Source: a virus
Taxonomy: Duplodnaviria > Caudoviricetes
Virus record (IMG/VR): IMGVR_UViG_3300043171_000157
Span: 1-47,348 of that record
DNA length: 47,348 nt
Strand: one strand, 5' to 3'
Part shown: piece after piece, positions 4,004 through 25,160 of the stretch
How the letters are laid out: each line of letters starts with the position of its first letter
How positions within the stretch are numbered: position 1 is the first letter of the stretch
Position numbers and translations under genes: made by a program
Notes under the pieces: model-generated
The model's database searches: none
The model's input: only the letters and a program-made list of their open reading frames with translations
Told to the model about the DNA's origin: nothing

Positions 4004-4269
4004 TAGATTACCTCGAAATTTTTAATGAAGTAATCTGGGGCGATATACCACTGATCTTCGTGATTGTCAGGATTTCTGGCTATTCCGCCGAAATTCTCTG
4101 GATCTACTTGAAACGGGTTTCCTTTTTCATGCTCTAATACATTAAAACTATCGATTAATATTTTATCTGCACTGGAAACAGATACACCGGTGAGATCCTC
4201 TCCGGGTATATACGGTCTTATTGATGTTATTTCAGTACGTCTGTACTCTTGGTATTCTCTAACAAACAT
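4003..4269 (-). CDS. Phage hypothetical protein
   Basis: GGAGG SD, first gene after a promoter. RPYIPGEDL...ARNPDNHEDQWYIA motif is familiar from phage proteins. Confidence 0.75.
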   Translation of the reverse strand: MFVREYQEYRRTEITSIRPYIPGEDLTGVSVSSADKILIDSFNVLEHEKGNPFQVDPENFGGIARNPDNHEDQWYIAPDYFIKNFEVI

Positions 4270-4336
4270 ATGGTTTTCCTCCCATTATAATAATAACTAC
4301 TAGTTATTATAAGGGGGCTCTTAAAGCCCCTGTTAT

Positions 4337-4365
4337 AATATAGCTCTTTTTTAGTCATTTGTCAA
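4337..4365 (-). promoter_or_regulatory. Sigma70-type promoter for the terminase operon
   Basis: TTGACA-N17-TATATT, divergent from the tRNA promoter. Confidence 0.85.
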
Positions 4366-4422
4366 GTCTTTTTTTCATAAATCGACTAAATTGCGAAAAT
4401 AGTTTAAAATTGAAGAAAGTAC

Positions 4423-4451
4423 TTGACTTTTAGGGTAAAATGTGTTATATT
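4423..4451 (+). promoter_or_regulatory. Sigma70-type promoter of the tRNA/ncRNA cluster
   Basis: TTGACT-N17-TATATT. Confidence 0.85.
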
Positions 4452-4456
4452 ATATA

Positions 4457-4530
4457 GGCGGGATAATTCAATTGGCAGAAGTGGAGGTTCATATCCTCCT
4501 AGTTTACCGGTTCAAGTCCGGTTCCCGCTA
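4457..4530 (+). tRNA. tRNA with CAT anticodon (Met or Ile2)
   Basis: Acceptor GGCGGGA/TCCCGCT, anticodon arm GGAGG-TTCATAT-CCTCC, T arm ACCGG-TTCAAGT-CCGGT. Confidence 0.9.
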
Positions 4531-4537
4531 TTTACGA

Positions 4538-4610
4538 CGGGGTATAGCTCAACTGGCAGAGCATCGCACTTTGAATGCGAAGGTTCTTAGTTCAAGTCTA
4601 AGTGCCCCCA
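4538..4610 (+). tRNA. tRNA-Gln(TTG)
   Basis: TCGCA-CTTTGAA-TGCGA anticodon arm, TAGCTCAACTGGCAGAGC D arm, TTCAAGT T loop, 1:72 mismatch. Confidence 0.92.
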
Positions 4611-4615
4611 TACGT

Positions 4616-4688
4616 GCGAGTTGTGGTGCAAGTGGCAGCATACGGGCCTGTGAAGCCTGAGATCTGGTATCAGTTGCCAGCAACCCGA
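4616..4688 (+). tRNA. tRNA-His(GTG) with atypical T loop
   Basis: CGGGC-CTGTGAA-GCCTG, G-1 present, T arm CTGGT-ATCAGTT-GCCAG. Confidence 0.7.
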
Positions 4689-4702
4689 TTAAAGAAGAAA
4701 AC

Positions 4703-5023
4703 TGACGGTGTAGGGTTACAGTAGACCTACTAACTTGTATGAGTCAAGCACTGCCGGCAATTAAAGCTCCTTACGCACTGGAAAGCCTAAAAAGCGGATC
4801 TGGATTTAAGCGCAAAACAGTCTATGGCTGGGGAGTGGGTCAAATTCGTAGACCGTAAGAATATACCTCCGATGCAACAGATGGGGGCTGGCAGAAGAGG
4901 CTTAAGGGTGGAGCAGTCGTCGATACAGGCCATCCGATATCTGATTAGCGATAGCTGTCTCCTGTAGGCTCTCACCTCCTCCTACCGACCCCTACAGGGG
5001 CTCTATCTGCTTTATTACCGTTA
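4703..5023 (+). ncRNA. Unclassified ~320-nt structured RNA
   Basis: GC-rich segment between tRNAs with no plus-strand ORF. The 5' and 3' ends pair, and at least six nested helices containing G.U pairs can be drawn. Confidence 0.75.
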
Positions 5024-5042
5024 CGATTTAAGCATGATACTC

Positions 5043-5114
5043 GCATAAGTAGTTCAATTGGCAGAATACCGGTCTCCAAAACCGATGATTAGGGTTCGAC
5101 TCCCTACTTGTGTG
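5043..5114 (+). tRNA. tRNA-Trp(CCA)
   Basis: GCATAAG/CTTGTGT acceptor, CGGT-CTCCAAA-ACCG anticodon arm, GGTTCGACTCC T arm. Confidence 0.9.
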
Positions 5115-5685
5115 CTTAATCAATAAAAAGGCCTAAGCTATCATTAGGAGCTTAAATTAAGGGAATATATGAATCACATTACAGCGTAACCAGAGTGTGA
5201 CTCTCGGAAGCATCTTCCAAGAATAATATATATCGAAAGCCAAAACAATGAAGAAGGGCAAATGATTATCCTAGAACTCAATCATAGGGTAGGGAATAAC
5301 TCCGTCCATCCAATTCTGAACAGCTCGAACTATCCATTATAGCTAATATAAGCCATATAAGTAACTGCTATGCGGTAGTAAAGTTTTAAGGGGTTACTCT
5401 AGGTATAGCTGGATACCCACGTTCACACCCATCCAACCCCACCCATCATAACCATGTGGGCTTGAGGGGTTCCGCATAACTCATTATAATTCATGTACTT
5501 AGTATGCATTCAGTGTATACATGTTTAGGTATTTGAGTAGTGTATACATAGTTTATACATTATATGCGGGGATTATGAGTGTACTAAGTTAAGTGCGGGG
5601 GTATATATCTAGACCTATTTGCTCTTTTTGATTCATTATAGCCTATCTTGAGCTTTAGTAGGTGCTTGACATTATTTAGAACACA

Positions 5686-5702
5686 TTGGCATGATACTTG
5701 CT
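5686..5702 (+). promoter_or_regulatory. Sigma54-type -24/-12 motif
   Basis: TTGGCATGATACTTGCT with exact GG-N10-GC spacing. Confidence 0.55.
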
Positions 5703-5782
5703 TCGCGCGCACATATAGTTATTAGTAGGTAGTTACAAGGCACAAGTAGACTAAAATAACATTAATAACACATTTATTCATT

Positions 5783-5827
5783 AAAGTAAAGAAATGATTA
5801 GGTTATCATGTTTAAAGAGTATAGTTT
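5783..5827 (+). promoter_or_regulatory. Early promoter, TAGG-type -35
   Basis: TAGGTT-N17-TAGTTT; a 20-bp block is shared with 7119-7138. Confidence 0.6.
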
Positions 5828-5863
5828 AAATAAGAGGGCGAACAACAACAAAGAGGTGACCCC

Positions 5864-6091
5864 ATGAAAGAGATAAATGAAAAGAAGGAAGCGAATCAGG
5901 TACAGCTTGCTAATCTTATCTACTCACTCTCACTTAATGTGAACGACTTAGATAGATACAGTAACACCGACTTCCTAGTACACGATACACAAGCAACAAT
6001 AAATCTACTAACTAGGAAGCTCAAAAGAGCACAAGGTAAAGTAGTTGAAGAAAGAATAAAAGCTCAATTTGTTAAACAAACACACGGTTGA
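5864..6091 (+). CDS. Early hypothetical protein
   Basis: GAGGTGA SD, 75 aa. Confidence 0.75.
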   Translation: MKEINEKKEANQVQLANLIYSLSLNVNDLDRYSNTDFLVHDTQATINLLTRKLKRAQGKVVEERIKAQFVKQTHG

Positions 6092-6102
6092 GTAATTTGA
6101 GG

Positions 6103-6216
6103 CACTTGTGTCTCTTTAGGTATTATAGGTAAATACATTTGGTAAGTAATCGACGGACGAAACTCTAAATGTAACCCTAGGGCAAAAGCCTATAGTATCT
6201 AAAAAAGCACAAGGTG
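6103..6216 (+). repeat. Conserved-stem hairpin element 1
   Basis: CTTGTGTCTCTTTAGGTATTATAGG...CCTATAGTATCTAAAAAAGCACAAG. Confidence 0.85.
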
Positions 6217-6653
6217 GACAAGATGAAACACTTCTACAATAGACAACAAGTAGCTATAATAGTTAAAATAGCTAAACTATGCGGAATAGACCCCGATGAT
6301 GTTGCTATGGTATGGGTTGAATCTGGTTATGCTAAAGTGTGGCACGATAAATATACAAGGGACTAAATAAACTAAAGAGGTGAGTATGTTAGAGGAATTT
6401 GAGTATAATGAGCTTATGACTGAGCTTGATGATTTTGAGGAGAATGAGGAATTAGAGTGTGAAACAGATAACGCTATTAACTCAAAATGCACAAAGAGGG
6501 CAATAATCGAAAATGAATAGTAGATATTATGAGCTTAAGGCTCTCTTAGAGCGTGAAAGAAGACGACTACACCCAAATGTCAAGATTATTGATGATTATG
6601 AATACAAGATCAAAATCATGCTTGCAAGGGGTGTATGGTTATAATTGAGACTA

Positions 6654-6753
6654 TTGAGTCTCTTTAGGTATTATAGTTAAGTCTCCTTAGTGGGAAGCTG
6701 ACAAGGCGTGTAATTAAGTGAGAGCACTGGCTATAGTATCTAAAAAGAATCAA
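6654..6753 (+). repeat. Conserved-stem hairpin element 2
   Basis: TTGAGTCTCTTTAGGTATTATAGTT...GGCTATAGTATCTAAAAAGAATCAA, 25-position stem. Confidence 0.85.
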
Positions 6754-6782
6754 CTATGTCAAAAAGCTAAAGGAGGTATAGT

Positions 6783-7338: not shown

Positions 7339-7447
7339 ATATATAAGGCAGTAAGGAACAACAAACAGTGCGCACGAGCTTCAAAGATGTTTGTTAGGCT
7401 AGGTTAGAATCCTAGAGCTAAAATGCACTAAAACAGGTAGGTACATC

Positions 7448-7822
7448 ATGGCACAAGAAAAAGTGAGCCGTGTTGACTTGTCAAAGGCGATAGCAATATC
7501 AAAGCAGACTCTAAGTGACGATACCATAAGCGATAGCTTACGATCTCACATTAAAGAGCATTTGAGAAAGCTAATAATTGCTCAAGATAAAGCAACAGGC
7601 AAAACGGTAGAAATGGATCTAAAACCACAAAACCGTCCAAGAACTAAAATAACTAATGGCGCTTGCAAAGTTAAAAAGAAGCGAGTAATGGGTACAGGCT
7701 CTAAAAAAGCTCAAGTAACCCAAACTATAACCATTAAGAGAAAGAAAGGTAAAAAAGCTGAACTTCCTACACATACTAAAGAAGGTATGCGAATAGTAAG
7801 GGCGACTTTTAGCAAGAAATAA
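7448..7822 (+). CDS. Basic early hypothetical protein
   Basis: 124 aa, AGGTAGGT upstream. Confidence 0.75.
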   Translation: MAQEKVSRVDLSKAIAISKQTLSDDTISDSLRSHIKEHLRKLIIAQDKATGKTVEMDLKPQNRPRTKITNGACKVKKKRVMGTGSKKAQVTQTITIKRKKGKKAELPTHTKEGMRIVRATFSKK

Positions 7823-7827
7823 CTAGT

Positions 7828-7961
7828 ATAGTGTGTAGATAGTTTAATAATCCAATAGGATAGAACACCTTATAAGTCTAGCTGAACGGTTCATGCAAGA
7901 ACTTATTAAATAGATACGGGAAATGTTGGTAACTGCAATAAAATCCAACACTACACACTAT
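7828..7961 (+). ncRNA. Intergenic structured RNA element
   Basis: Perfect 11-bp closing stem ATAGTGTGTAG/CTACACACTAT with internal helices. Confidence 0.55.
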
Positions 7962-8106
7962 TTAGAGTTTGACAATAACGTCAATAATAAGGAGATATAT
8001 TATGGAATTATTAGCAGGAGTAATAATTGTAGCGATAGTAGTAATGATAATTTTCTAAGTATTATGGGTTTATGGTATTCCTAGTGGTGATGCGCTGAAA
8101 ACCACC

Positions 8107-8269
8107 TTTGAGTCTCTTTAGGCTCTATATGTAAGCAGTGAGGTGGCAATAAGAATAGTTAACGGCTAAGGGTGACTACATACATTAAGACTCTGTATTG
8201 TAACACGACTAGACAAGAACTGTGTGAGCCTAAGTACCGTATTGCATATAGCGTCTAAAAAGACCCAAA
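8107..8269 (+). repeat. Conserved-stem hairpin element 3
   Basis: TTTGAGTCTCTTTAGGCTCTATATGTAA...TTGCATATAGCGTCTAAAAAGACCCAAA, 28-position stem. Confidence 0.85.
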
Positions 8270-8291
8270 CAACTAAACAGGTAGGTAGCAA

Positions 8292-8540
8292 ATGGCTAGT
8301 ATTATAGCTCAAAAAGTTAAACACCAACAGGCCGGTAATATATTTGATAATATATGTGCCATACAGACACGGATTGAAATAGCTAAACAATCACAAGTAA
8401 CTCAAAGAGAACGTGATAATATGGAGTCACTAGTAGGCGAGCTAGGTGTTGAACTTGAAAGGTCACGGAATTGTAAAAGCAGAAAACAAGTAAGAAGAAT
8501 GTTTGCAAATCGCTTTGATTGTACAGCACAAAAGTTATAA
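8292..8540 (+). CDS. Early hypothetical protein
   Basis: 82 aa, AGGTAGGT upstream. Confidence 0.75.
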   Translation: MASIIAQKVKHQQAGNIFDNICAIQTRIEIAKQSQVTQRERDNMESLVGELGVELERSRNCKSRKQVRRMFANRFDCTAQKL

Positions 8541-8929
8541 CCCAAAAGGGAGTGTGATACATGAATCAAATCAGAGCACCAAACTAGTATAAAATATACT
8601 ACCCCAATATAAAAAAACGGGGCCAAACTGAGACTTATAACCGCAAGATAAGTATAATTGGGCTTATGATAGTATTCACCTACAGCAGGGAGTACTATCA
8701 CAAGACCAATAACCAAGGGCGTATTATGATGATTGTTAATTGCGGGTCTTTTGTTCGTTTTTATACAAACAAGGGTGAGTATTTCACACTATTGGCCCAT
8801 AAGCCAGAACCGCTAAAACCGTTCAACTTATATAATGCTAAAACATTAAGTCTTATTAGTGGGTGCTTAAATGTGCATAATGCTAAAAGGTTAATAGAAA
8901 TATACGAATTAAATAAATAAGGGCGTATC

Positions 8930-9112
8930 ATGGCTAAATGTTCAATATGTAATAATTGTAGCAATAGGTGCATCTATAGCAATGGAAAAACCATTAGTAT
9001 AGACCTAAGAAACACAATTAGAGCTTTAGAGAATTTTGAGGATTGTCCACCAAATGAGAGAGAATTTTACAAAGGGGCGTCATTTGGTAGTAGAGGAGGG
9101 CCGGACTCGTGA
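8930..9112 (+). CDS. Cys-rich mini-protein
   Basis: CSICNNCSNRC motif; GTGA coupling to the next gene. Confidence 0.6.
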   Translation: MAKCSICNNCSNRCIYSNGKTISIDLRNTIRALENFEDCPPNEREFYKGASFGSRGGPDS

Positions 9113-9333
9113 GCTTAGATAGTATTCAGACAATACAGAACAAATTATATGGCAGAACTAAATCTGCTCACAGTGCTCTTTGTATTGATTTGAGAGAGGA
9201 TTATGTTGTTAATGTATTAAAAGCGTCTATAAGCATATATAGGGGTCAAATGGGCTATAAGTATGCCGAAAGATGGATTTTAATAGGATTGGGTGTTGAT
9301 AGCGAAAAACCGCTCCCACACCCAATGGAATAA
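9109..9333 (+). CDS. Hypothetical protein
   Basis: GGAGG SD, GTG start. Confidence 0.6.
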   Translation: MSLDSIQTIQNKLYGRTKSAHSALCIDLREDYVVNVLKASISIYRGQMGYKYAERWILIGLGVDSEKPLPHPME

Positions 9334-9349
9334 ATAAATAAAATAGTAC

Positions 9350-9458
9350 TTGACTTTTGAGTATTAATAACTTAACTTAAATAAGACTTAATAAATAAGT
9401 TAAACGGTAAATTTTGATTAATTAATCGCTTGACTTTCAAACAAAAATAATGTAGTTT
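9350..9458 (+). promoter_or_regulatory. Two tandem sigma70-type promoters
   Basis: TTGACT-N17-TAACTT (9350) and TTGACT-N17-TAGTTT (9430). Confidence 0.7.
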
Positions 9459-9501
9459 AAATAAGAGACAACATTAAAACGATAAACAGGTAGGTAAAAA
9501 A

Positions 9502-9747
9502 ATGAAAGGTGAATTTATAGTAGATGGCAAAAAGCTAAAAGAGCAAAAGCCGGCATTAACACTTAGAGAAATGAAAAAGTGTGAATTTTTTCTCGGAACT
9601 TACAGCAAAAATCAACACTTAATCTATAAAGATAAAAACGGTTTTTGTACGTCATTAACAAACGGACAACAACTTGGAAATGACAATAGTGGCGTTACCA
9701 ATGTTGTCAATCACAAGAAAGTGACTATTGATATTGTAACAAAGTAG
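9502..9747 (+). CDS. Hypothetical protein
   Basis: 81 aa, AGGTAGGT upstream. Confidence 0.7.
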   Translation: MKGEFIVDGKKLKEQKPALTLREMKKCEFFLGTYSKNQHLIYKDKNGFCTSLTNGQQLGNDNSGVTNVVNHKKVTIDIVTK

Positions 9748-9936
9748 GTGGGCGTGAAAACAAACTTACCAACAGTATTTAAGTTAATGAATTTAGATAC
9801 TGTTGAAAAAATAAATAAAAGACTGTTGGGTAATTTTGAAGATGTAGAACGATACCAAGATGGCATGCTTAAAAAATTGCAAGAAAACAATTGCATTATG
9901 GCTCTAGTTAAAGAGCACAATGTAGAATTAAAATAG
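9748..9936 (+). CDS. Hypothetical protein
   Basis: ORF packed between neighbours. Confidence 0.55.
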   Translation: MGVKTNLPTVFKLMNLDTVEKINKRLLGNFEDVERYQDGMLKKLQENNCIMALVKEHNVELK

Positions 9937-10076
9937 GTAGGTAGGTATGAAAGATAAGAGAATGAAGATTAGAATAGTTAGTAAAGGCTCTAAGAAGAAA
10001 GCCTCAAAAATTAAAAAGAATCAATCATCAATTGAGGCATACAGAGAGTGGCAAATACACAACAAAGTAGTATGCA

Positions 10077-10226
10077 TTGGATGGTGATAAGAGCTTGATA
10101 GCGGCCACTTGTCCGAACTGTGGATATGTATACTATGATGATCTTTATGAGGAGTGCCCGAGCTGTGGTGGCCTCAATGAATCAGATGTAGAGCTATTAG
10201 GTGATGATTGTGAAGAACACTGGTGA
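10077..10226 (+). CDS. Acidic zinc-ribbon/rubredoxin-like mini-protein
   Basis: Manual translation ...TCPNCGYVYYDDLYEECPSCGG...; start uncertain (TTG). Confidence 0.6.
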   Translation: MDGDKSLIAATCPNCGYVYYDDLYEECPSCGGLNESDVELLGDDCEEHW

Positions 10227-10232
10227 TTGCGA

Positions 10233-10350
10233 CAGAGGATTGATGGTGAAAGCCATGCATTAATTGGGCTCAAGACCTGACCTCTGACCAAGTTTCGGTG
10301 CGGGCAACGTAGTTTGTTTAAGGGATTTTCTGAGCTACGCCCGTTGCCGA
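10233..10350 (+). ncRNA. GC-rich structured RNA (junction plus long hairpin)
   Basis: CAGAGG/CCTCTG encloses ATGGT-GAAA-GCCAT; then TCGGTGCGGG..CGTAGTT pairs with AGCTACG CCCGTTGCCGA. Confidence 0.6.
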
Positions 10351-10443
10351 CATTTAGTTTCTTTAGGTATCGCCGGTTACAGCGATTGTACGCTAGTTAT
10401 AAAGAAAGGTACGTCGACCATCGGTATCTAAAAAAATTAAATG
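10351..10443 (+). repeat. Conserved-stem hairpin element 4
   Basis: CATTTAGTTTCTTTAGGTATCG...CGGTATCTAAAAAAATTAAATG, 22-position stem. Confidence 0.85.
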
Positions 10444-10466
10444 GAATAAAAAAAGGAGTAAATAAA

Positions 10467-10733
10467 ATGAGTGGATTAATAATATTTTTAATATACATAG
10501 CAGTGGTGCTAATTGGAACTATAATACTTGGCATGATTTGGGATAAATTAAGGCATGATCAGGACGAACTTGCTGTTGTCATCCTTGTCTTATGGCCGTT
10601 TGCATTAACCTTAATTCCACCATGTTGGCTTATATATTTCATATTCAAATCTCTCTTTACATTTGGAGAGTTGTTGGGTGAGAAAATATCAACGGCATTT
10701 AAAAAGGTTGTGAGAAGCGCTAGTAAATACTAA
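10467..10733 (+). CDS. Two-TM membrane protein
   Basis: AAGGAG SD before ATG 10467; two hydrophobic segments with LWP motif. Confidence 0.75.
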   Translation: MSGLIIFLIYIAVVLIGTIILGMIWDKLRHDQDELAVVILVLWPFALTLIPPCWLIYFIFKSLFTFGELLGEKISTAFKKVVRSASKY

Positions 10734-10745
10734 AATGGAGACAAT

Positions 10746-11048
10746 ATGTTAAGGTCAATAAGAAAACCAACAAAGAAACCCAATGAAGAGATATTGGAGA
10801 TTACACTTAAAGACGTTGAGGAAGAAATTAGGTGCGGATATATGTATGGCAGTAGAGACAATAAGGGTAATGTTGTTTTATATTTGCCAGATTATAGGTC
10901 TAGCACAGGGGTAATAAATATCGTGTATATTGGCAAGAAAAGCGACGGGGGTCTTTCAATTGAATCGGTTGGTGAATTACTTAAAAACGACTATAAGGAT
11001 AAAATACTTAAAAAGATAGGCTCTTATAGAGATATTGGGCTATTATGA
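10746..11048 (+). CDS. Early paralog family member A
   Basis: EITLKDVEEEIRCGYMY...KILKKIGSYRDI. Confidence 0.7.
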   Translation: MLRSIRKPTKKPNEEILEITLKDVEEEIRCGYMYGSRDNKGNVVLYLPDYRSSTGVINIVYIGKKSDGGLSIESVGELLKNDYKDKILKKIGSYRDIGLL

Positions 11049-11317
11049 GCAAGGAATTTAAAGAGGCTATACAACCCTATAAAGACGCTATAATGAGAGC
11101 GCAAAAGATGAAAGTAATTTGTAAGAAACAGATAGCAATAGAGAATGATATAATAGTGAGGGCACAAGATGAAATATCAAAAATTGCGATTGCGGAAAAT
11201 AGAAAAGATGCGTGACATTGAAATAACTAAAAATAAAATGTATGTTAAAGAAACTATAATATCTACATTAATAATGCTAACCTACTTTGGTGGATTGGTA
11301 TGGGTGGGGTTTAATAT

Positions 11318-11575
11318 ATGAACGTAGAATTTTATGTAATATATGTAGAACATAGTGACCCAAAGTGGGCACATGTTGATGTTGATGGATATTTAAAAGG
11401 CTCTGGATGGAGTAAGAAAGAAGTTAAAGACATTGAGAAGGCTAATAGATACCCAACATTTAAAGGTGCTGATATGGCTTCCGATAAGCTAAAATGGAAT
11501 TATTCATTAAGAAGCCCGAAACCTAAAATAGAAACAAGAAAGTATGTTGGTACGGTTGAAAGGGTGGAATTATGA
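11318..11575 (+). CDS. Hypothetical protein
   Basis: 85-aa ORF, ATGA-coupled to the next gene. Confidence 0.65.
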   Translation: MNVEFYVIYVEHSDPKWAHVDVDGYLKGSGWSKKEVKDIEKANRYPTFKGADMASDKLKWNYSLRSPKPKIETRKYVGTVERVEL

Positions 11576-11766
11576 ATGTACGGAATCTAATAGAGCGACT
11601 TATGTTAGTAGAAAACAAAGAGTCTAAAATATTTGTTTATGATGAAAATATTGCCGACGAAGGGAAGGTAAATCCTAGAAACCACATAAGTTTTGTTGAT
11701 GATTTAAGCAACAAAGAGACTCAATTTGGACTTGTTGATGTTGTTATAAATTTTAGAGGTGGATGA
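11572..11766 (+). CDS. Hypothetical phage protein
   Basis: MNVRNLIERL N-terminus of the common phage MTVxELIxxL type. Confidence 0.7.
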   Translation: MNVRNLIERLMLVENKESKIFVYDENIADEGKVNPRNHISFVDDLSNKETQFGLVDVVINFRGG

Positions 11767-11861
11767 TGATATATTTATTATTAATGTTACCATGTGTAAC
11801 CGGATTTATAATTGGTGCAATGGTAGCGGTAGTGGAGATAGTATTAACAAGGTAGGAACGT

Positions 11862-12152
11862 ATGAGAAAAGTTATAGGTCACGCCAATAGGGTTGAAACC
11901 TTTGAAGCGACAAGTGAAGAAGTAATAGAAGGTATACTTAATGGTGATTTATACTGCTATAAAACCATCTGCGGTTGTTGGCTATATGTTAAAATGTATG
12001 TGGGCGGAGGCAACAAGACTGAGATAAAATGCCTTAGTGTTCCAAGTTTTTCAATATATTACAACTCCGATTTTTCAATAAGAGAGACAATGCAGAATAG
12101 AATTAATGAGGGTACAATATATAAGATAGACTCCATTAAAGAGCTATTATAA
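11862..12152 (+). CDS. Early paralog family member B
   Basis: EATSEEVIEGILNGDLY...NEGTIYKIDSIKELL. Confidence 0.7.
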   Translation: MRKVIGHANRVETFEATSEEVIEGILNGDLYCYKTICGCWLYVKMYVGGGNKTEIKCLSVPSFSIYYNSDFSIRETMQNRINEGTIYKIDSIKELL

Positions 12153-12164
12153 AAGTAGGTAGGT

Positions 12165-12473
12165 ATGCAAGTATTAAAGAGAAAGTTTAAGACCTGTTTT
12201 AGTGAGAAAAAAGAAACACTTAAACAAGTAAAAGAAAACATATTTAAATATCCTAGATCACTGTATGTTCATTCTTGGAATAGTAGGTTTGTATATATAG
12301 CTAATGATGACGATAAGACAATAAGTTGCATAAACATAGACGCCCCATTAATGTATAAACAGTCTCAAGTATTAAGAGAGCTTGAGAAAGATTTTAATGA
12401 GGATAAACTAATAAAAGTTTCCTCACTTAAAGAAGCGTTTAGAGTGCCAAAACATTTACATTATAACAGGTAG
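12165..12473 (+). CDS. Early paralog family member C
   Basis: KETLKQVKENIFK..SLY...NEDKLIKVSSLKEAF. Confidence 0.7.
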   Translation: MQVLKRKFKTCFSEKKETLKQVKENIFKYPRSLYVHSWNSRFVYIANDDDKTISCINIDAPLMYKQSQVLRELEKDFNEDKLIKVSSLKEAFRVPKHLHYNR

Positions 12474-12479
12474 GTAGAA

Positions 12480-12755
12480 ATGAATCAAGAAGAAATGGAA
12501 AAGAAAATTATATCCATGCAAGTAGTATTGGATGGACAAACAAATTTACTAAAGACAATTACTAAGTTAATTGCGGGTAATGACACAAATATGACTAAGG
12601 TGGCAAACTCTATGTTGCTATCAGCTAAAGCCATAAGTGCTTTACAGAAATTAGTTAAACACCAAAGTGAAAAGATAGAAGTACAGAGTACAATCCTATC
12701 AATTCATGGGCTTACAGACATACTGGGAGGTGATGGAGGTGGTGAAAGCACTTAG
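12480..12755 (+). CDS. Coiled-coil hypothetical protein
   Basis: Heptad-like pattern; AGGTAGGT upstream. Confidence 0.7.
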   Translation: MNQEEMEKKIISMQVVLDGQTNLLKTITKLIAGNDTNMTKVANSMLLSAKAISALQKLVKHQSEKIEVQSTILSIHGLTDILGGDGGGEST

Positions 12756-12956
12756 GTACACTAGTGTTCTATGCTCTAAGGTAAGGGCTAAGAGGGCACA
12801 AAGAGTACAATCAGATAAGACTATTAATATGATGAAACCGGCGTTGAATCACCAATTCCATCTATTAAGATTCTTACAGGAGCACCCTATGTATAGGGCT
12901 GATTGTGTAATGTTGCATAATAATCATTACTCTCCAAAAATTAATTAATTATTCGC

Positions 12957-12985
12957 TTGACTTTTCAAGTAAAATAATTTATATT
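12957..12985 (+). promoter_or_regulatory. Sigma70-type promoter
   Basis: TTGACT-N17-TATATT. Confidence 0.8.
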
Positions 12986-13183
12986 ATATAAGAGGCTTTA
13001 AACATTAAATGTTTGGCTTTAAAAAATTAAACGGTAGGTAGTTATGGCGGTTCAAGAAAATAAACCGGATCTAAAATTTAGATTAACGCTGTTAAGAATA
13101 TTTATTGAGACTCTTGAGTCAAAAGGTAAAATAACAGCAGAAGAGAGAAGTTACATGGTTAGTCTCTTTGATAAGGAGGGATA

Positions 13184-13807
13184 ATGTTTAAGGTAGGTGA
13201 TGAGATTATAGTAGTTGACGAAAATGATAATAGTGGAACAACTGGATATAAGGGTGTTATTATCAATGAAGAAAACAATAATTATTGGACAGTAAGGTTT
13301 GATGAGTGGTATAATGGCCATGGCGATGGCTATAGAAATTGGAATATTAGTGGTGAAGAGTTAATGCTCTTGAAAGATTATGTACCGCCAAAGGTAAGTA
13401 AAAGACCTAAGCCAAAGATAAGGTTTAAGACTGAGATGGATATGGCTCAAGAGTATGGTGAGCATTGGCGTAAAAAAAACTACTGGCAAAGTAGCATGGA
13501 TCGCTTACACGGTAAGTACTTAAACGGCGAACAATATGATGAGGCATATAGGCTAATGATTAAGGGCAAGCCCTTTGCTAGGGGTTGGTTTTTCCGTAGA
13601 AGTGAATATGGTGGAGAAGAAAACAGAAGCCATGATATAGCATATACCTCACTAGAGTTTGTGTATGATGCGAAAAGAGAGGAGCCACCGAAACACACTT
13701 GCTCATACTGTTTTAAAGGAATAACAAAACGGCAACACATAAAGAATAAGGGATTATGCAATGGTCACGTATGGTCACTATCTAGTAAGGTTTTAACCAA
13801 GGTATAG
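13184..13807 (+). CDS. SH3-like N-terminal domain plus C-terminal Zn finger
   Basis: MFKVGDEI...GYKGVI...VRFD; PKHTCSYCFK...GLC. Confidence 0.7.
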   Translation: MFKVGDEIIVVDENDNSGTTGYKGVIINEENNNYWTVRFDEWYNGHGDGYRNWNISGEELMLLKDYVPPKVSKRPKPKIRFKTEMDMAQEYGEHWRKKNYWQSSMDRLHGKYLNGEQYDEAYRLMIKGKPFARGWFFRRSEYGGEENRSHDIAYTSLEFVYDAKREEPPKHTCSYCFKGITKRQHIKNKGLCNGHVWSLSSKVLTKV

Positions 13808-13943
13808 TATGAAGTGTGTAATATGGATAAACGAACAAACATTACAATTAGCTCTGTGTGTATGGAGCTTAATTTGAGGCTCTTAGAGTATCTTAACGGG
13901 TATTCTAAAAACCCCAAATCACACAAAAATAGGAGGTCGTGAT

Positions 13944-14291
13944 ATGAAGGCAAAACTGGTAACAAGACCAAAACCTGCATTGGAAGTAGTTGCAGAAACA
14001 ATGGCAGATGTTGAGGCAAACATCAAAAATGGTATTGCATATGCAACCACTCGAAAGAGCGGAAGCCTATCAATCTATTCCTTTAACAGAAGCTCGGGTC
14101 AAATCGTTGCTCTCTATCAGGATTCCGGTACTGCCGATCCTAAAGAGACAGGAAAGATCAAGGCTAAGGGTACTCACAAGAACAAAGTGAAGACCATTAA
14201 TGTTGAAGAGTCTCTTCAAGAGGCCTATGATCAAGAGCGTTTGATCAAGCTAGACAATTTAACAGAACACTTTGTGTTCCCAACTACTTAG
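13944..14291 (+). CDS. Early paralog family member D
   Basis: AETMADVEANIKNGIAY...DQERLIKLDNLTEHF; AGGAGGT SD. Confidence 0.75.
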   Translation: MKAKLVTRPKPALEVVAETMADVEANIKNGIAYATTRKSGSLSIYSFNRSSGQIVALYQDSGTADPKETGKIKAKGTHKNKVKTINVEESLQEAYDQERLIKLDNLTEHFVFPTT

Positions 14292-14345
14292 GAGTAAGTA
14301 GAAATACTAATCAGTATTGAGATTAGCACCCTCAATACTTATACT

Positions 14346-14418
14346 GTTCCTGTCATCTAACTGGCTAGGATATCAGGTTTTCAACCTGACAATTAAGGTT
14401 CGAATCCTTACGGGAATA
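14346..14418 (+). tRNA. tRNA-Glu(TTC)
   Basis: GTTCCTG/CGGGAAT acceptor, TCAGG-TTTTCAA-CCTGA, GGTTCGAATCC. Confidence 0.92.
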
Positions 14419-14453
14419 TTTAATATGTATAACAATAAAATAGGTAGGTGTGA

Positions 14454-16166
14454 ATGTATCGTTTTGGAATATTAAATTTTGATGGATGTTCATCAAACGA
14501 GAGGAAAGAAAAAATAGTAGAAATGCTAATATTTATGACCACAAAAAGCGTGGCTGTTAACGGTAGCGAGACTATTAATTTGGTTGAAAATAAGAGTCAC
14601 TTTTTCGAGCATGAAACTACTTACTTGGCGTTTCAGGGTGGATCGAGCTACTGTGAATTGAGATCAACAAACAGAACAGTCACAAACAAAAAAGAGATAC
14701 AATATTTGTTGGGGGGAAATTACTATAGTTCCGATGTTAGGGAAAGTAAAATCAGCACAATAAGTACAATGGATGAACTAAAAGAATTTATTGATCAATT
14801 TGAAAAACTCAATGGAAAGGGAAGGCGGTTAAATAGAAGTCGAAGATATGAGGAATTTGAGAACCAAATATCGTCAGATATGAGAACCGGTAGAAATAGG
14901 CTTGAAACCGATTTTGACTTCATAGATTTTGATGCCGAAGATTCAAAAATGATTTCGGTTGTTAATAAGTCGAGGTACGATAAAGTTGGCGAGGATTTTT
15001 ATCTTCCATCAATGAGAAAGTCGGTTGCCGTAAAGATGAAACCGGGAAAGTTCTTTAAAAAATTATATCCAGATGCCACTGCAAAATGGTGTGAGGATTT
15101 TGCCACACAAGTGAGGCTAATAAACAGGGATGAAAAAGATTTTAAACTGGAAGTTAGAAAAGATGTTAGATTTTGTTACGATGAAAAGAATTATGGAGCT
15201 AATAAAGGACAGCTAGGAAGCTCCTGTATGAAGCACTCCAATAAAAATCATTTCATGGAATTTTATGAGGGTAACAATGTTAAGGTGTTAGCTTTAATGG
15301 CCTTTGGTAAGGTGTTTGGGAGGGCATTGCTATGGGATGATGTACACTTTAAAGACCTTAAAAAAGATGGGAAATATATGGATAGGGTGTTTATGAGCAA
15401 CTCTATGGACACTGCATTATTTAATAAGTGGGCTATTGATAATGGATATTATCACAGGGATACATCTGGAAGAACAAGTGGACTGCACAATCCAAAGGGT
15501 GATCCTGTAAAATCAGCTATTATATTTTCAAACAAAGGAAACTTAAATACTGAATACGAGGTTTTTCCATACCTAGATACATTTGGGAGTATGTCACTTG
15601 ACAAGAGTGAGTTATCAAGTGTGACTCTTAAATATCATTGGAGCATGAGATCAACGGGGGGTACGATAAATCACAATGGTAGATGGAGTAAGTATTATAA
15701 AGAAGCTCTTGAACCTGAAAAAAGTGTTAGGTCGGAAGAACTTAATGATAATATCAAGAAGGAGCTTGCTGTTGTCATAGAGGATGAAGAGTATGAAGAT
15801 ACATTTTTTATGCCGGATGATCATGGTGACATTGTTACCATTGGTGATAAAAATTATTTGAAAACCTTTGCCAGTGTTCTTTATAGTAAACATGAGGAAG
15901 AACACTTCCTTAGAAATGACAGGAACTTTGTGTTCTCGAAAAGTAAAGATGATTGGATTCCTAGAAATGTATCAATATTTTCTAAGCATCACAATGATTG
16001 GATGTTATTTGAAGATGCGGTATTTGTCCACTGCACAGACTCTTATTATAATAAGAGCGAGGTTGGTGTGAGTATATTTGAACATGAGGAAACTTATGTT
16101 ACAAAAGATGAAATGAAAAAGATTGAATGGGCAAAAGAGTTTCAAATAAAAATGGAGTTAGCATGA
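14454..16166 (+). CDS. 570-aa phage protein of unknown function (SCM / GRALLW / MDRV / PYLDT motifs)
   Basis: Motif set recognisable from uncharacterised phage proteins, C-terminal short repeats, ATGA-coupled to the peptidase. Confidence 0.7.
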   Translation: MYRFGILNFDGCSSNERKEKIVEMLIFMTTKSVAVNGSETINLVENKSHFFEHETTYLAFQGGSSYCELRSTNRTVTNKKEIQYLLGGNYYSSDVRESKISTISTMDELKEFIDQFEKLNGKGRRLNRSRRYEEFENQISSDMRTGRNRLETDFDFIDFDAEDSKMISVVNKSRYDKVGEDFYLPSMRKSVAVKMKPGKFFKKLYPDATAKWCEDFATQVRLINRDEKDFKLEVRKDVRFCYDEKNYGANKGQLGSSCMKHSNKNHFMEFYEGNNVKVLALMAFGKVFGRALLWDDVHFKDLKKDGKYMDRVFMSNSMDTALFNKWAIDNGYYHRDTSGRTSGLHNPKGDPVKSAIIFSNKGNLNTEYEVFPYLDTFGSMSLDKSELSSVTLKYHWSMRSTGGTINHNGRWSKYYKEALEPEKSVRSEELNDNIKKELAVVIEDEEYEDTFFMPDDHGDIVTIGDKNYLKTFASVLYSKHEEEHFLRNDRNFVFSKSKDDWIPRNVSIFSKHHNDWMLFEDAVFVHCTDSYYNKSEVGVSIFEHEETYVTKDEMKKIEWAKEFQIKMELA

Positions 16167-17644
16167 GTGTAGGCGATATAAAGAAACATAAAAAAATACC
16201 GGAGAGGTTGCCAAAGATACCTGAGAAGGTTGGAGAGGAATTTGTAGATGTTCTAAGAGTTCAAAGCGTATCAAGTAATGAGTACTTTATGATGAAGTAT
16301 ATTCTTGATAGACTCTCTGGAAAAGGCTACTCTATTGAGATAGATGATAATGCAAATATTATTGTAACAAAAGGTAAGGCTAAAGTATTCCCTTGTGTTG
16401 TATCTCATAAAGACACTGTTCACAGTCTTGTTAAAGATTATGACGTGTACCAATGTGAAGATGAAAAAGATAAGCACGAAATATTATTTGCCATGCAAGG
16501 AATTGGCGACGATGCAATATCATCCGGTGTTGGAGGTGATGATAAATGCGGAATTTACTCATGCTTCTATATGCTTGAGAGGGCTCAAAATATTAAAGTT
16601 ATATTCTTCTCACAAGAAGAAATAGGTTGTAAAGGGTCACACGGTATTGACTTGAAACACTTTGAAAATGTTGGGTATATATTACAGCTTGACAGGTGGG
16701 GTCGTGGTGACTTCATAGATAAAGTTTACAACACTAAAACTGTTAGTCCAGAATTTAGTAGCACAATATCTGACAAGATGATTGAGTATGGTTATACTTC
16801 AACTACCGGTCTTATAACCGACTCGATCACCTTGTTCAAAAGAGATGTTGGAATAAGTTGTGTGAATATAAGTTGTGGGTACTACTCACATCACAGTAGC
16901 CTAGAGGAAATTGATTGTAATCAATTCTATAACAGTCTTATGTTCTTAGAGGACATAGTTGACAAGCTAGGAGAGAAGAAGTATGAGAAGGAAAATAAGC
17001 CCGAGCCATATAAAGCTCCGGCATATCAGAGCAAGTATTTTACAGGTAAATATTATACTCCACCGAGGAAGAAATACTTAATGGATTGTAAGCAAACCGA
17101 TGAGACGAAATGTTGGAAGTGTAAGGACTTTTACAATTGCGCTGATTACGATAAGAAATTTCCGAAAGATATAAAAAAGAATAGGTGTACCAACTTAGGC
17201 CATGTTAATTGCACGACCTGTAAAAATTGGGCATCCTGTAATACAACATATAAAGAGAAAGCCTCACAGGAGGCGGAGAGGGTAAAGGATATAACGAAAG
17301 ATACCCCTATTACTGAGATGGATAAAATAATACAAATGAATGAGTATTATAGTGATATGGAGGATGCACTAAAAGATTTTGGTGGTGATGATAGTGATGA
17401 TAATATTGATGATAGCTACGGTAGACCTAGTTGGTTGCCGGAAGATGTTGCGCTATCACTACACTGTGAGAATGTTATGTATATGGTTGAAAGGTATGGA
17501 TTTAGTAGGACTAACCTAGAGTACACATACAATAACATAGCACAGGATATTCTAGACCAAATGGAGAGTGAGTTCACATATATGTATGGCTATGGAATTA
17601 AGTCAATGGAGGCTGAAATAGAGAGGGCTTTATGTGGGGTGTAA
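16163..17644 (+). CDS. Zn-dependent peptidase (M28/M20/M42 fold) with Cys-rich C-terminal extension
   Basis: SHxDTVH, GGDDKCG, QEEIG, QLDR and GYYSHHS metal-ligand motifs. Confidence 0.88.
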   Translation: MSVGDIKKHKKIPERLPKIPEKVGEEFVDVLRVQSVSSNEYFMMKYILDRLSGKGYSIEIDDNANIIVTKGKAKVFPCVVSHKDTVHSLVKDYDVYQCEDEKDKHEILFAMQGIGDDAISSGVGGDDKCGIYSCFYMLERAQNIKVIFFSQEEIGCKGSHGIDLKHFENVGYILQLDRWGRGDFIDKVYNTKTVSPEFSSTISDKMIEYGYTSTTGLITDSITLFKRDVGISCVNISCGYYSHHSSLEEIDCNQFYNSLMFLEDIVDKLGEKKYEKENKPEPYKAPAYQSKYFTGKYYTPPRKKYLMDCKQTDETKCWKCKDFYNCADYDKKFPKDIKKNRCTNLGHVNCTTCKNWASCNTTYKEKASQEAERVKDITKDTPITEMDKIIQMNEYYSDMEDALKDFGGDDSDDNIDDSYGRPSWLPEDVALSLHCENVMYMVERYGFSRTNLEYTYNNIAQDILDQMESEFTYMYGYGIKSMEAEIERALCGV

Positions 17645-17981
17645 TATGGTAATAAAATTTTTTGAAGGACAAAGGGTTGTTGCAAAAAGAAACTATGGGG
17701 TATATGCTTGTAAGGATATAGAGGGTATTGTTTTGGATAACCCATATAGATGGGATAGAAGGATTTTTGTTAGGTTTGATACGCCGGTAAGAGGTGATCG
17801 TGTTAGAGAGACTTATATATTTAAATCATATTTAAAGCCCATAAAAAGGAATGCTAGAGCTAAAGCACCAAAACACATATGCTCATATTGTTTTAAAGAA
17901 ATACCAAGATTGACAAGTGTTAAAAGTGGCCTATGTACACCATGCAAAACTTACTTTAACAAAAAGGCGGTTAAGAAATGA
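17634..17981 (+). CDS. SH3-like plus Zn-finger protein, paralog of 13184-13807
   Basis: FFEGQRV...EGIV...VRFD; PKHICSYCFK...GLCTPC. Confidence 0.7.
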   Translation: MGCNMVIKFFEGQRVVAKRNYGVYACKDIEGIVLDNPYRWDRRIFVRFDTPVRGDRVRETYIFKSYLKPIKRNARAKAPKHICSYCFKEIPRLTSVKSGLCTPCKTYFNKKAVKK

Positions 17982-18298
17982 ATGTTGATGAATTTTCAAA
18001 AGATATACTAAACGCAATTTGTGAAGAAAGAGGAATTGATATACCTAAAACAGATGCTACAAATATAGCGGGCCTCATAGCTAAAGATGAAGAGTATGAT
18101 TTTATGAGCCTAGTGTATGAAGGTATTATGATAGATGGAAAAATAACTTATATAGTTCCTGACAAATATTTGATGGTGATACCTATTAATAAAGAACGTG
18201 GCGAGGTGGCTATGGATTTGATGGAAGAATTTGAGTGTGAGCACGTTGATTATTTTGATGGGTTCGGTGAGTATAAATTATTTTACATATGTTGGTAG
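17978..18298 (+). CDS. Acidic hypothetical protein
   Basis: ATGA-coupled ORF. Confidence 0.7.
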   Translation: MNVDEFSKDILNAICEERGIDIPKTDATNIAGLIAKDEEYDFMSLVYEGIMIDGKITYIVPDKYLMVIPINKERGEVAMDLMEEFECEHVDYFDGFGEYKLFYICW

Positions 18299-24717: not shown

Positions 24718-24791
24718 TGATGAGTAGCTCAATTGGTTAGAGCTCCGGTCTGATAAAGCGGAGGTTGTAGGTTCAAGTCCTGCCTCATCAA
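24718..24791 (+). tRNA. tRNA-Ile(GAT)
   Basis: TGATGAG/CTCATCA acceptor, CTGATAA loop, GGTTCAAGTCC; one G.G mismatch in the anticodon stem. Confidence 0.85.
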
Positions 24792-24881: not shown

Positions 24882-25160
24882 ATGAAACAGAAAGCTGGAA
24901 AATTGCGGTACGATTTAATCCCACCATTACTACTTCAAGAGCTAGCAAGAGTATTTACTTTTGGCGCTGACAAGTATGATGATGATGATTGGATTCAGGC
25001 AGTAGAGGATGATCCTAGAGCATATAAGGACGCAACAATGAGGCACTGGGAATCATACAGGATGGGAGAGAGTCACGATAGTGAAAGCCATATACACCAC
25101 CTGTCTCACGGAATGACAAACATGGGAATATTACTTTATAATGAGTTAAAGGAGGAATAA
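24882..25160 (+). CDS. dATP/dGTP diphosphohydrolase domain protein (DUF5664-like)
   Basis: KLRYDLIP..LARVFTFGADKY..W..RH..GESHDSES.IHHLSH..N. Confidence 0.85.
   Translation: MKQKAGKLRYDLIPPLLLQELARVFTFGADKYDDDDWIQAVEDDPRAYKDATMRHWESYRMGESHDSESHIHHLSHGMTNMGILLYNELKEE

Follow-up and report, generated by a model that had tools for sequence, protein, structure and literature searches.

A GC-rich candidate non-coding RNA with a loop complementary to ribosome-binding-site words in the tRNA operon of a Caudoviricetes phage

Introduction

RNAIII of Staphylococcus is a chromosomal RNA that carries three UCCC loops and also encodes a peptide. According to PMC4615179 it is a large, multi-hairpin RNA whose C-rich loops seed pairing with the ribosome-binding site (RBS), and both RNAIII and the NfeR1/cuckoo RNAs have been described as silencing mRNAs at the RBS through anti-Shine-Dalgarno (anti-SD) hairpin loops (PMC4615179; bioRxiv 10.1101/2025.11.14.688489). 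In the cuckoo/NfeR1 (ar14)/CcsR small RNAs of Alphaproteobacteria an anti-SD motif of the CCUCCUCCC type lies in a hairpin loop, and NfeR1 loops are reported to block translation at an RBS (bioRxiv 10.1101/2025.11.14.688489). The cuckoo RNAs, as presented in PMC4615179, consist of two to four adjacent hairpins of 24-50 nt, each carrying the motif and arranged with no multiloop.

Other relevant systems are found next to tRNA genes. GOLLD and ROOL are phage RNAs that occur near tRNA islands and are described as having no known function; they are defined by covariation and cage formation, and many GOLLD RNAs exceed 800 nt (PMC12286853). Regulatory RNAs have also been reported to arise from the spacers of tRNA operons (bioRxiv 10.1101/2021.04.25.441314), and the 3'ETS-leuZ of E. 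coli is a regulatory RNA that is released from a tRNA operon by processing and acts as a sponge for sRNAs.

Here we analyze a 321-nt island (4703..5023, plus strand) in the tRNA operon of a Caudoviricetes phage (IMG/VR record IMGVR_UViG_3300043171_000157). All coordinates refer to the window, i.e., the whole stretch of 47,348 nt that was analyzed. With respect to the cuckoo/NfeR1 motif, a predicted open loop of the island has eight of the nine letters: it reads CCTCCTCC at 4975-82, identical to the first eight of the nine cuckoo letters given in PMC4615179. Unlike the cuckoo RNAs, it has a single loop of this kind, borne by a 76-nt rod within 321 nt, it is situated in a phage tRNA operon and it has no Rfam match. 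It is similar to RNAIII in its predicted multi-hairpin layout and C-rich loop, but shows no sequence or Rfam match to it. Location is what the island has in common with GOLLD and ROOL, which are much larger, and neither the size nor a match to the models of these families was found. As with 3'ETS-leuZ, the RNA would be released by processing of a tRNA operon, but its predicted targets are RBSs rather than sRNAs and its position is between two tRNAs.

Genomic Context and Composition of the Island

The virus record comprises 47,348 bases and has direct terminal repeats. Genes for the terminase, portal and major head proteins are found on the minus strand, and those for a helicase, an exonuclease, an annealing protein and a resolvase on the plus strand. 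The one public run containing the virus is a DNA run, a marine sediment metagenome that is possibly its source; the island is variant-free in its reads, and no RNA run with the virus was listed.

Four plus-strand tRNA genes, identified by both a tRNA search and Rfam, span 4457-5115, namely tRNA-Met(CAT) at 4457..4530, tRNA-Gln(TTG) at 4538..4610, tRNA-His(GTG) at 4617..4688 and tRNA-Trp(CCA) at 5043..5115. Among the six tRNAs of the phage, tRNA-His has the lowest Rfam score (42.7 bits), and its T-loop (ATCAGTT) is non-canonical. The first two spacers of the operon measure 7 and 6 nt, compared with 354 nt for the gap between tRNA-His and tRNA-Trp. The operon is likely driven by a sigma-70-type promoter-like site on the plus strand (4423..4451; TTGACT-17-TG-TATATT), which agrees with the consensus at 10 of 12 positions. 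The number of such sites is by itself no evidence, since 10 were found where 6.2 +/- 2.6 were expected. The site is contained in a family of six promoter-like repeats (4413-4458, 9340, 12947, 19081, 22184 and 24671), two of which directly precede tRNA genes (Met and Ile); the one ahead of tRNA-Ile at 24718 is the copy closest to that of the operon (87%). Nothing resembling a terminator was detected within 4200-6200.

Some additional observations concern the surroundings of the tRNA genes. Just after tRNA-Ile, at 24882-25160, there is a gene with a dATP/dGTP diphosphohydrolase domain (PF18909), which may point to modified DNA. The stretch after tRNA-Trp (5116-5860) is poor in ORFs and folds with z between -0.15 and +0.43. 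Runs of C occur in it near 5420-5450, and an inverted repeat rich in AT is located near 5505-5560; it is possibly an origin or control region. Repeated elements of 23-36 nt, possible operators or processing sites, are found at 6097-6213, 6645-6754, 7693-7715 and 8108-8135 among small plus-strand genes.

The initial annotation of the window, made without database searches, described a GC-rich island between tRNA-His and tRNA-Trp, and our analysis confirmed it. The GC content of the island is 0.498, versus 0.378 for the genome, its flanking spacers have 21% and 37% GC, and 0.55% of all 321-nt windows of the genome are as GC-rich. Three ORFs of 39, 47 and 62 aa overlap the island, with codon scores from -0.51 to 0.02, compared with 0.06-0.47 for 12 small genes of the phage, and no protein family or homologue was found for any of them. 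In a cmscan search no Rfam 15 match was obtained in 4689-5042, either at the gathering score or at E<=10.

The likeliest reading is that of a non-coding, plus-strand RNA that is co-transcribed with the tRNAs, because the island has tRNA-like GC with sharp edges and no gene-like ORF, the repeated promoter lies upstream and no terminator-like site intervenes. The co-transcribed RNA proposed in the initial annotation is partly supported, by coding content and operon context, with transcription itself being an inference. Overall, the island is probably a non-coding RNA that is uncatalogued in Rfam, with one supported feature and a predicted overall fold.

Searches for Homologues

Searches with blastn revealed no homologue of the island in phages (one of them gave eight records at E 8, and in another the best 30 matches listed were tRNA matches) or in plasmids, and the only match within the genome was the island itself. 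The phage is a rare one, with 38 matches obtained for its terminase and 4 for its capsid, itself included; its closest relative, on a 38,739-bp contig, shares 59% terminase and 63% capsid identity. Twenty-five terminase loci, 28-49% identical, were retrieved from viral sequences (4), metagenomes (19, with 43 of 64 parts scanned) and genome collections (2). No tRNA and no nhmmer match to the island was found in these loci, most of which are short and miss the upstream flank. Three longer stretches from relatives that share the virion module also contained no similar RNA.

Four gapped patterns derived from the island retrieved 119 (26 of 64 parts scanned), 9, 106 and 60 stretches of viral contigs, none of them homologous. 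One viral contig (L242) has, at about 690-815 on the minus strand, a hairpin-rich, non-coding-looking stretch beside tRNA-Val that is unrelated to the island. BLAST against 401 and 301 genomes from two phyla, chosen as guesses at the host, yielded matches of 17-35 nt in 15 and 8 genomes, respectively, a chance-level result. The pattern of the 3' rod gave no match in 301 genomes, and a single-sequence model of the rod matched none of 141 genomes, in a search run without a positive control, and only itself among 28 sources. A relative of the island could be present among the about 10,000 candidate viral RNAs reported in PMC10690425.

Predicted Fold

The initial annotation had named folding no better than in shuffled controls among the results that would speak against an RNA. 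The island did not pass this test: its minimum free energy (MFE) is -91.4, compared with -98.05 +/- 5.11 for the shuffles (z +1.30), and 94 of 100 shuffles fold as stably. We consider this a weak refutation, because ten miniature RNase P RNAs of phages range from z -3.5 to +1.3 in folding; for 14 archaeal RNase P RNAs all values were -1.4 or lower.

Pairing of the island's ends had been proposed for 4703-4716 with 5009-5023. A predicted closing helix does exist (4703-4710/5016-5023, plus strand; ensemble probability 0.39-1.0), but it has 8 bp, including two G.U pairs, and not 14, as ungapped pairing stops after eight pairs. At the ends chosen in the initial annotation none of 150 shuffles reaches such a helix, whereas with the ends fixed by the tRNAs 360 of 3000 do, which is at chance level. 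Regarding the seven helices named, the end helix included, all five internal ones given with coordinates are complementary as written, and the GATAG/CTATC helix was placed at 4950-54/5003-07, but four of the seven have an ensemble probability of <=0.05. Ensemble weight was found only in the end helix, in 4751-58/4887-94 (0.76-0.84) and in the 4961-68/4991-98 core (about 0.39), and the structure of the initial annotation has an energy of -83.5 versus the MFE of -91.4. Helices of at least 8 bp number 16 in the island, compared with 10.8 +/- 3.1 in shuffles, 12 of 150 of which reach 16.

In the predicted fold, all of it on the plus strand, two small hairpins (4710-30 and 4734-48, within 4710..4748; p 0.2-0.3) are followed by a central domain (4751..4894). 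The latter is closed by the predicted 8-bp helix 4751-58/4887-94, its inner helices have p<=0.01, and it contains a G-rich segment (4830-39) and words similar to RNase P RNA (4780-88 and 4891-4904, the latter extending past the domain). A possible 6-bp hairpin comes next (4906..4935; p 0.03), and its G-rich 5' strand may alternatively pair with a C-rich loop nearer the 3' end. That loop caps a predicted interrupted rod of 23 bp (4942..5017) with the core 4961-68/4991-98. Likeness of the two small hairpins to D and T arms was considered and rejected, as it was not significant: their tRNA profile score is reached by 154 of 1000 shuffles and there is no RF00005 match. The rod window (4936-5023) folds with z -2.4, a window chosen after the fact, and this value was discarded as evidence, since it is lost under a best-window control (best 88-nt window; 107 of 120 shuffles).

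Two further arguments of the initial annotation could not be maintained. The first took the G.U pairs on the plus strand as a sign of an RNA; this is circular, as helices were picked with G.U allowed (6 of 50 pairs are G.U), and the minus strand of the island folds lower (-96.5). It is because of the operon context that we favour the plus strand. The second was a loop-loop contact of 4830-39 with 4971-79, which turned out to be complementary only with a gap, giving a bulged duplex of -12.9 kcal/mol, while 4895-4915 is a competing partner of the same C-rich loop (-14.3 kcal/mol).

The C-rich Loop and the Ribosome-Binding Sites of the Phage

The strongest feature of the island under the controls run is the 22-nt C-rich hairpin loop at 4969..4990 (plus strand), which is predicted to be open; in an ensemble without pseudoknots, 4974-86 is unpaired with a probability of 0.83-0.95. 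In the initial annotation it had been taken as an internal kissing partner, and its anti-SD match to the RBS words of the phage had been overlooked. The loop contains a 9-mer (4972-80), found once in the genome, that we take to match the anti-SD tail of 16S rRNA. It is followed by CCTACC (4981-86), the complement of the phage RBS word GGTAGG. Among 5000 shuffles, 25 contain a 9-mer of the tail as we assume it, and 40 of 20000 have an 8-mer from it within a stem-loop of at least 8 bp.

Three plus-strand RBS words were recognized in the phage (GAGGTGA, GGTAGG and (T)AGGAGGA), and along its length the loop is complementary to each of them. Of these, GGTAGG is genuinely used as an RBS word: on the plus strand it occurs 14 times, in 9 cases ahead of an ATG frame of at least 46 codons. 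The plus-strand gene block 7436-18294 shares the unusual RBS word AGGTAGGT/GGTAGG, with GAGGTGA upstream and AGGAGGA downstream of it.

An exact complement of at least 6 nt to the loop (4969-90) was found upstream of 22 of 59 ORFs, in a list that, along with its start codons, was hand-picked, omits small ORFs and may include some wrong starts. The matches are distributed unevenly, with 20 of 41 plus-strand genes versus 2 of 18 minus-strand genes (Fisher p 0.008); an omitted minus-strand ORF near 2639 also carries GGTAGG. Shuffled loops reach the count of 22 in 81 of 20000 cases, and no 22-mer from any of 400 shuffled RNAs does so. The mean loop-RBS duplex energy is -9.4, compared with -8.1 +/- 0.6 for shuffled loops, 6 of 300 of which reach it. 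It appears that the loop covers more RBSs than the 16S tail, since the assumed tail alone matches 13. These fall on 10 of 41 plus-strand and 3 of 18 minus-strand genes, and selection is not required for all of the strand bias, because the late RBSs are weaker anyway. Throughout the genome, 46 of 94652 22-mers reach the same count, of which 40 lie outside the loop; 28 of these 40 are minus-strand windows, several of them opposite RBSs themselves. About eight hypotheses preceded this one, so the p values of 0.002-0.005 obtained for the loop are only moderate.

Proposed Mechanism

We tentatively propose, as the reading that we favour among those considered, that the island yields an RNA co-transcribed with the tRNAs whose 3' loop masks RBSs and dampens translation initiation. 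The island would be transcribed as part of the tRNA operon, and cutting at the tRNA ends would free an RNA of about 320-350 nt. Its 5' limit would be set by 3' processing of tRNA-His and its 3' limit by the RNase P cut at the 5' end of tRNA-Trp, probably with some 3' trimming. The 3' rod would then display the C-rich loop, which would base-pair in trans with Shine-Dalgarno sites and lower initiation on early/middle phage mRNAs, and probably on host mRNAs too, while late genes with short SD words would be less affected. We infer the early/middle versus late assignment of the strands from gene content, the plus strand carrying the replication genes and the minus strand those of the virion. No description of a phage anti-SD RNA of such kind was found in the literature, where mostly non-subscription journals were searched.

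The model of an RBS-masking RNA accounts for about 90 of the 321 nt. The 5' 230 nt may stabilize the RNA, or may serve to hide the loop through G-rich 4830-39 or 4904-13. A more far-reaching version, which we regard as quite doubtful, would be a new class of large phage RNA, in which the 230-nt scaffold gates a composite anti-SD loop matching all three early/middle RBS words; an RNA-only switch would then stop early, middle and host translation and spare the late genes with their weak RBSs.

Alternative Explanations

The duplexes that the loop can form within the island, with 4827-46 (-12.9 kcal/mol) and 4895-4915 (-14.3 kcal/mol), are similar in energy to those with matched RBSs (about -10 to -18). 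They would also be expected of a compact structural or scaffold RNA, comparable to GOLLD and ROOL in role and not in family, whose loop kisses its own G-rich segments or a second copy. This explanation would account for the full length of the island and for its location in a tRNA island, which it shares with GOLLD and ROOL (PMC12286853), and unremarkable MFE z-scores are possible for pseudoknotted RNAs. However, the loop-loop contact requires a bulge, the match between the loop and the GGTAGG word of the phage itself is left unexplained, no Rfam match was found and the island has 321 nt versus >800 for many GOLLD RNAs in PMC12286853. A scaffold RNA is unlikely in our opinion.

Lack of excess folding and of homologues in the searches run would also fit a functionless stretch transcribed with the operon, either a remnant in decay or modules of former tRNA genes or other RNA genes strung together by chance. 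Additional points in its favour are the atypical tRNA-His adjoining the island and the odd tRNA-like elements of a related phage. On the other hand, the island retains tRNA-level GC with sharp edges inside an AT-rich genome, the other spacers of the operon are 5-7 nt long and the anti-SD loop passes the shuffle controls; we therefore consider a remnant unlikely. The elements mentioned are found on a related 40-kb phage contig (L435, G002:C3), where two minus-strand tRNA-Leu-like elements (12060-11950 and 11745-11610) score below the Rfam cut-off. The second of them keeps the acceptor, variable and T arms, and has a folded D-arm extension of about 40 nt and a 4-nt anticodon loop. Likeness of the island to these two elements did not stand out from shuffles (192-1330 of 3000) and was rejected.

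We tested closely whether the island could be a degenerate form of RNase P RNA with ties to the miniature versions found in phages, because two of its words, at 4780-88 and 4891-4904, are similar to conserved regions I and V, respectively, follow each other in the right order and can pair over 6 bp. Short words of this type are common to the island and the miniature RNAs. Scored jointly with matrices built from 60 cellular RNase P RNAs, the two words give 15.6 bits, a value that 7 of 1500 shuffles also attain, but the values for real RNase P RNAs are 42.6-47.6 bits. With an archaeal profile, the 3' core aligns to 4861-4904, at only -4.1 bits (E 0.15), and no match was found to RF00010, RF00373 or RF02357, or to RF00011, which was covered by cmscan only. 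Miniature phage RNase P RNAs do exist: a consensus pattern retrieved 26 viral loci, 10 of which (L408, L413-415, L422, L423, L425, L427, L429 and L430) carry RNAs of about 200-225 nt with compensated P4/P5, calls that rest on conserved words and compensated helices. Pairwise scores of the island against these ten are reached by 200-929 of 1000 shuffles, and a profile of them scores it at background. An unfiltered search with their covariance model yields no more than 1.8 bits for the plus strand of the island, whereas the same model recovers three of four cellular RNase P RNAs, with 14.8-41.4 bits. The island does not reproduce, in a full topology, the bulged U and ACA-AA that are invariant among the ten: the candidate P4 helix has no bulged U, no fitting P1-P3 was found and a third register that has the bulged U (4818-25/4951-57) is without the flanking conserved letters. 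The RNase P reading is thus close to refuted, and we hold it to be very improbable. Separately, the 0.9-Mb genome G002 (L261, L263; G002:C7) was found to carry a 276-nt RNase P RNA twice, 4.5 kb apart, below the Rfam cut-off (81.3 bits).

The statement of the initial annotation that tmRNA and intron hallmarks are missing still holds, with no RF00023 or RF00028 match and nothing reported by ARAGORN at default score, and a degenerate tmRNA, group I intron or intron-split tRNA is extremely improbable: only at eye level does the codon run at 4755-90, which has one extra base, look like a tag and the 5' hairpin like a D arm, while there is no alanine acceptor stem with G3.U70, no T-arm (4999-5015 included), no stop-ended tag frame and no P3-P7 core with conserved junctions, removal of the island restores no host RNA and the best of 2783 in-silico splicings scores at most 81.5, compared with 103-119 for the four real neighbours. 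A small protein-coding gene is disfavoured to the same extent, since the three overlapping ORFs have the low codon scores given above and neither family nor homologue, and although the minus strand at the loop (G-rich run 4972-4986) reads as a strong SD that could serve as RBS, the only nearby start, a GTG at 4975, sits inside that SD.

Biological Implications

At present, the proposed RBS-masking RNA is represented by a single sequence with one statistically supported feature. Should the proposal be correct, an RNA that mimics the mRNA-docking tail of the ribosome would enable a small phage to control the timing of its gene expression or to silence the host, and such an RNA would come for free from tRNA processing. 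It would also provide one testable function for the poorly understood non-coding RNAs of phage tRNA clusters.
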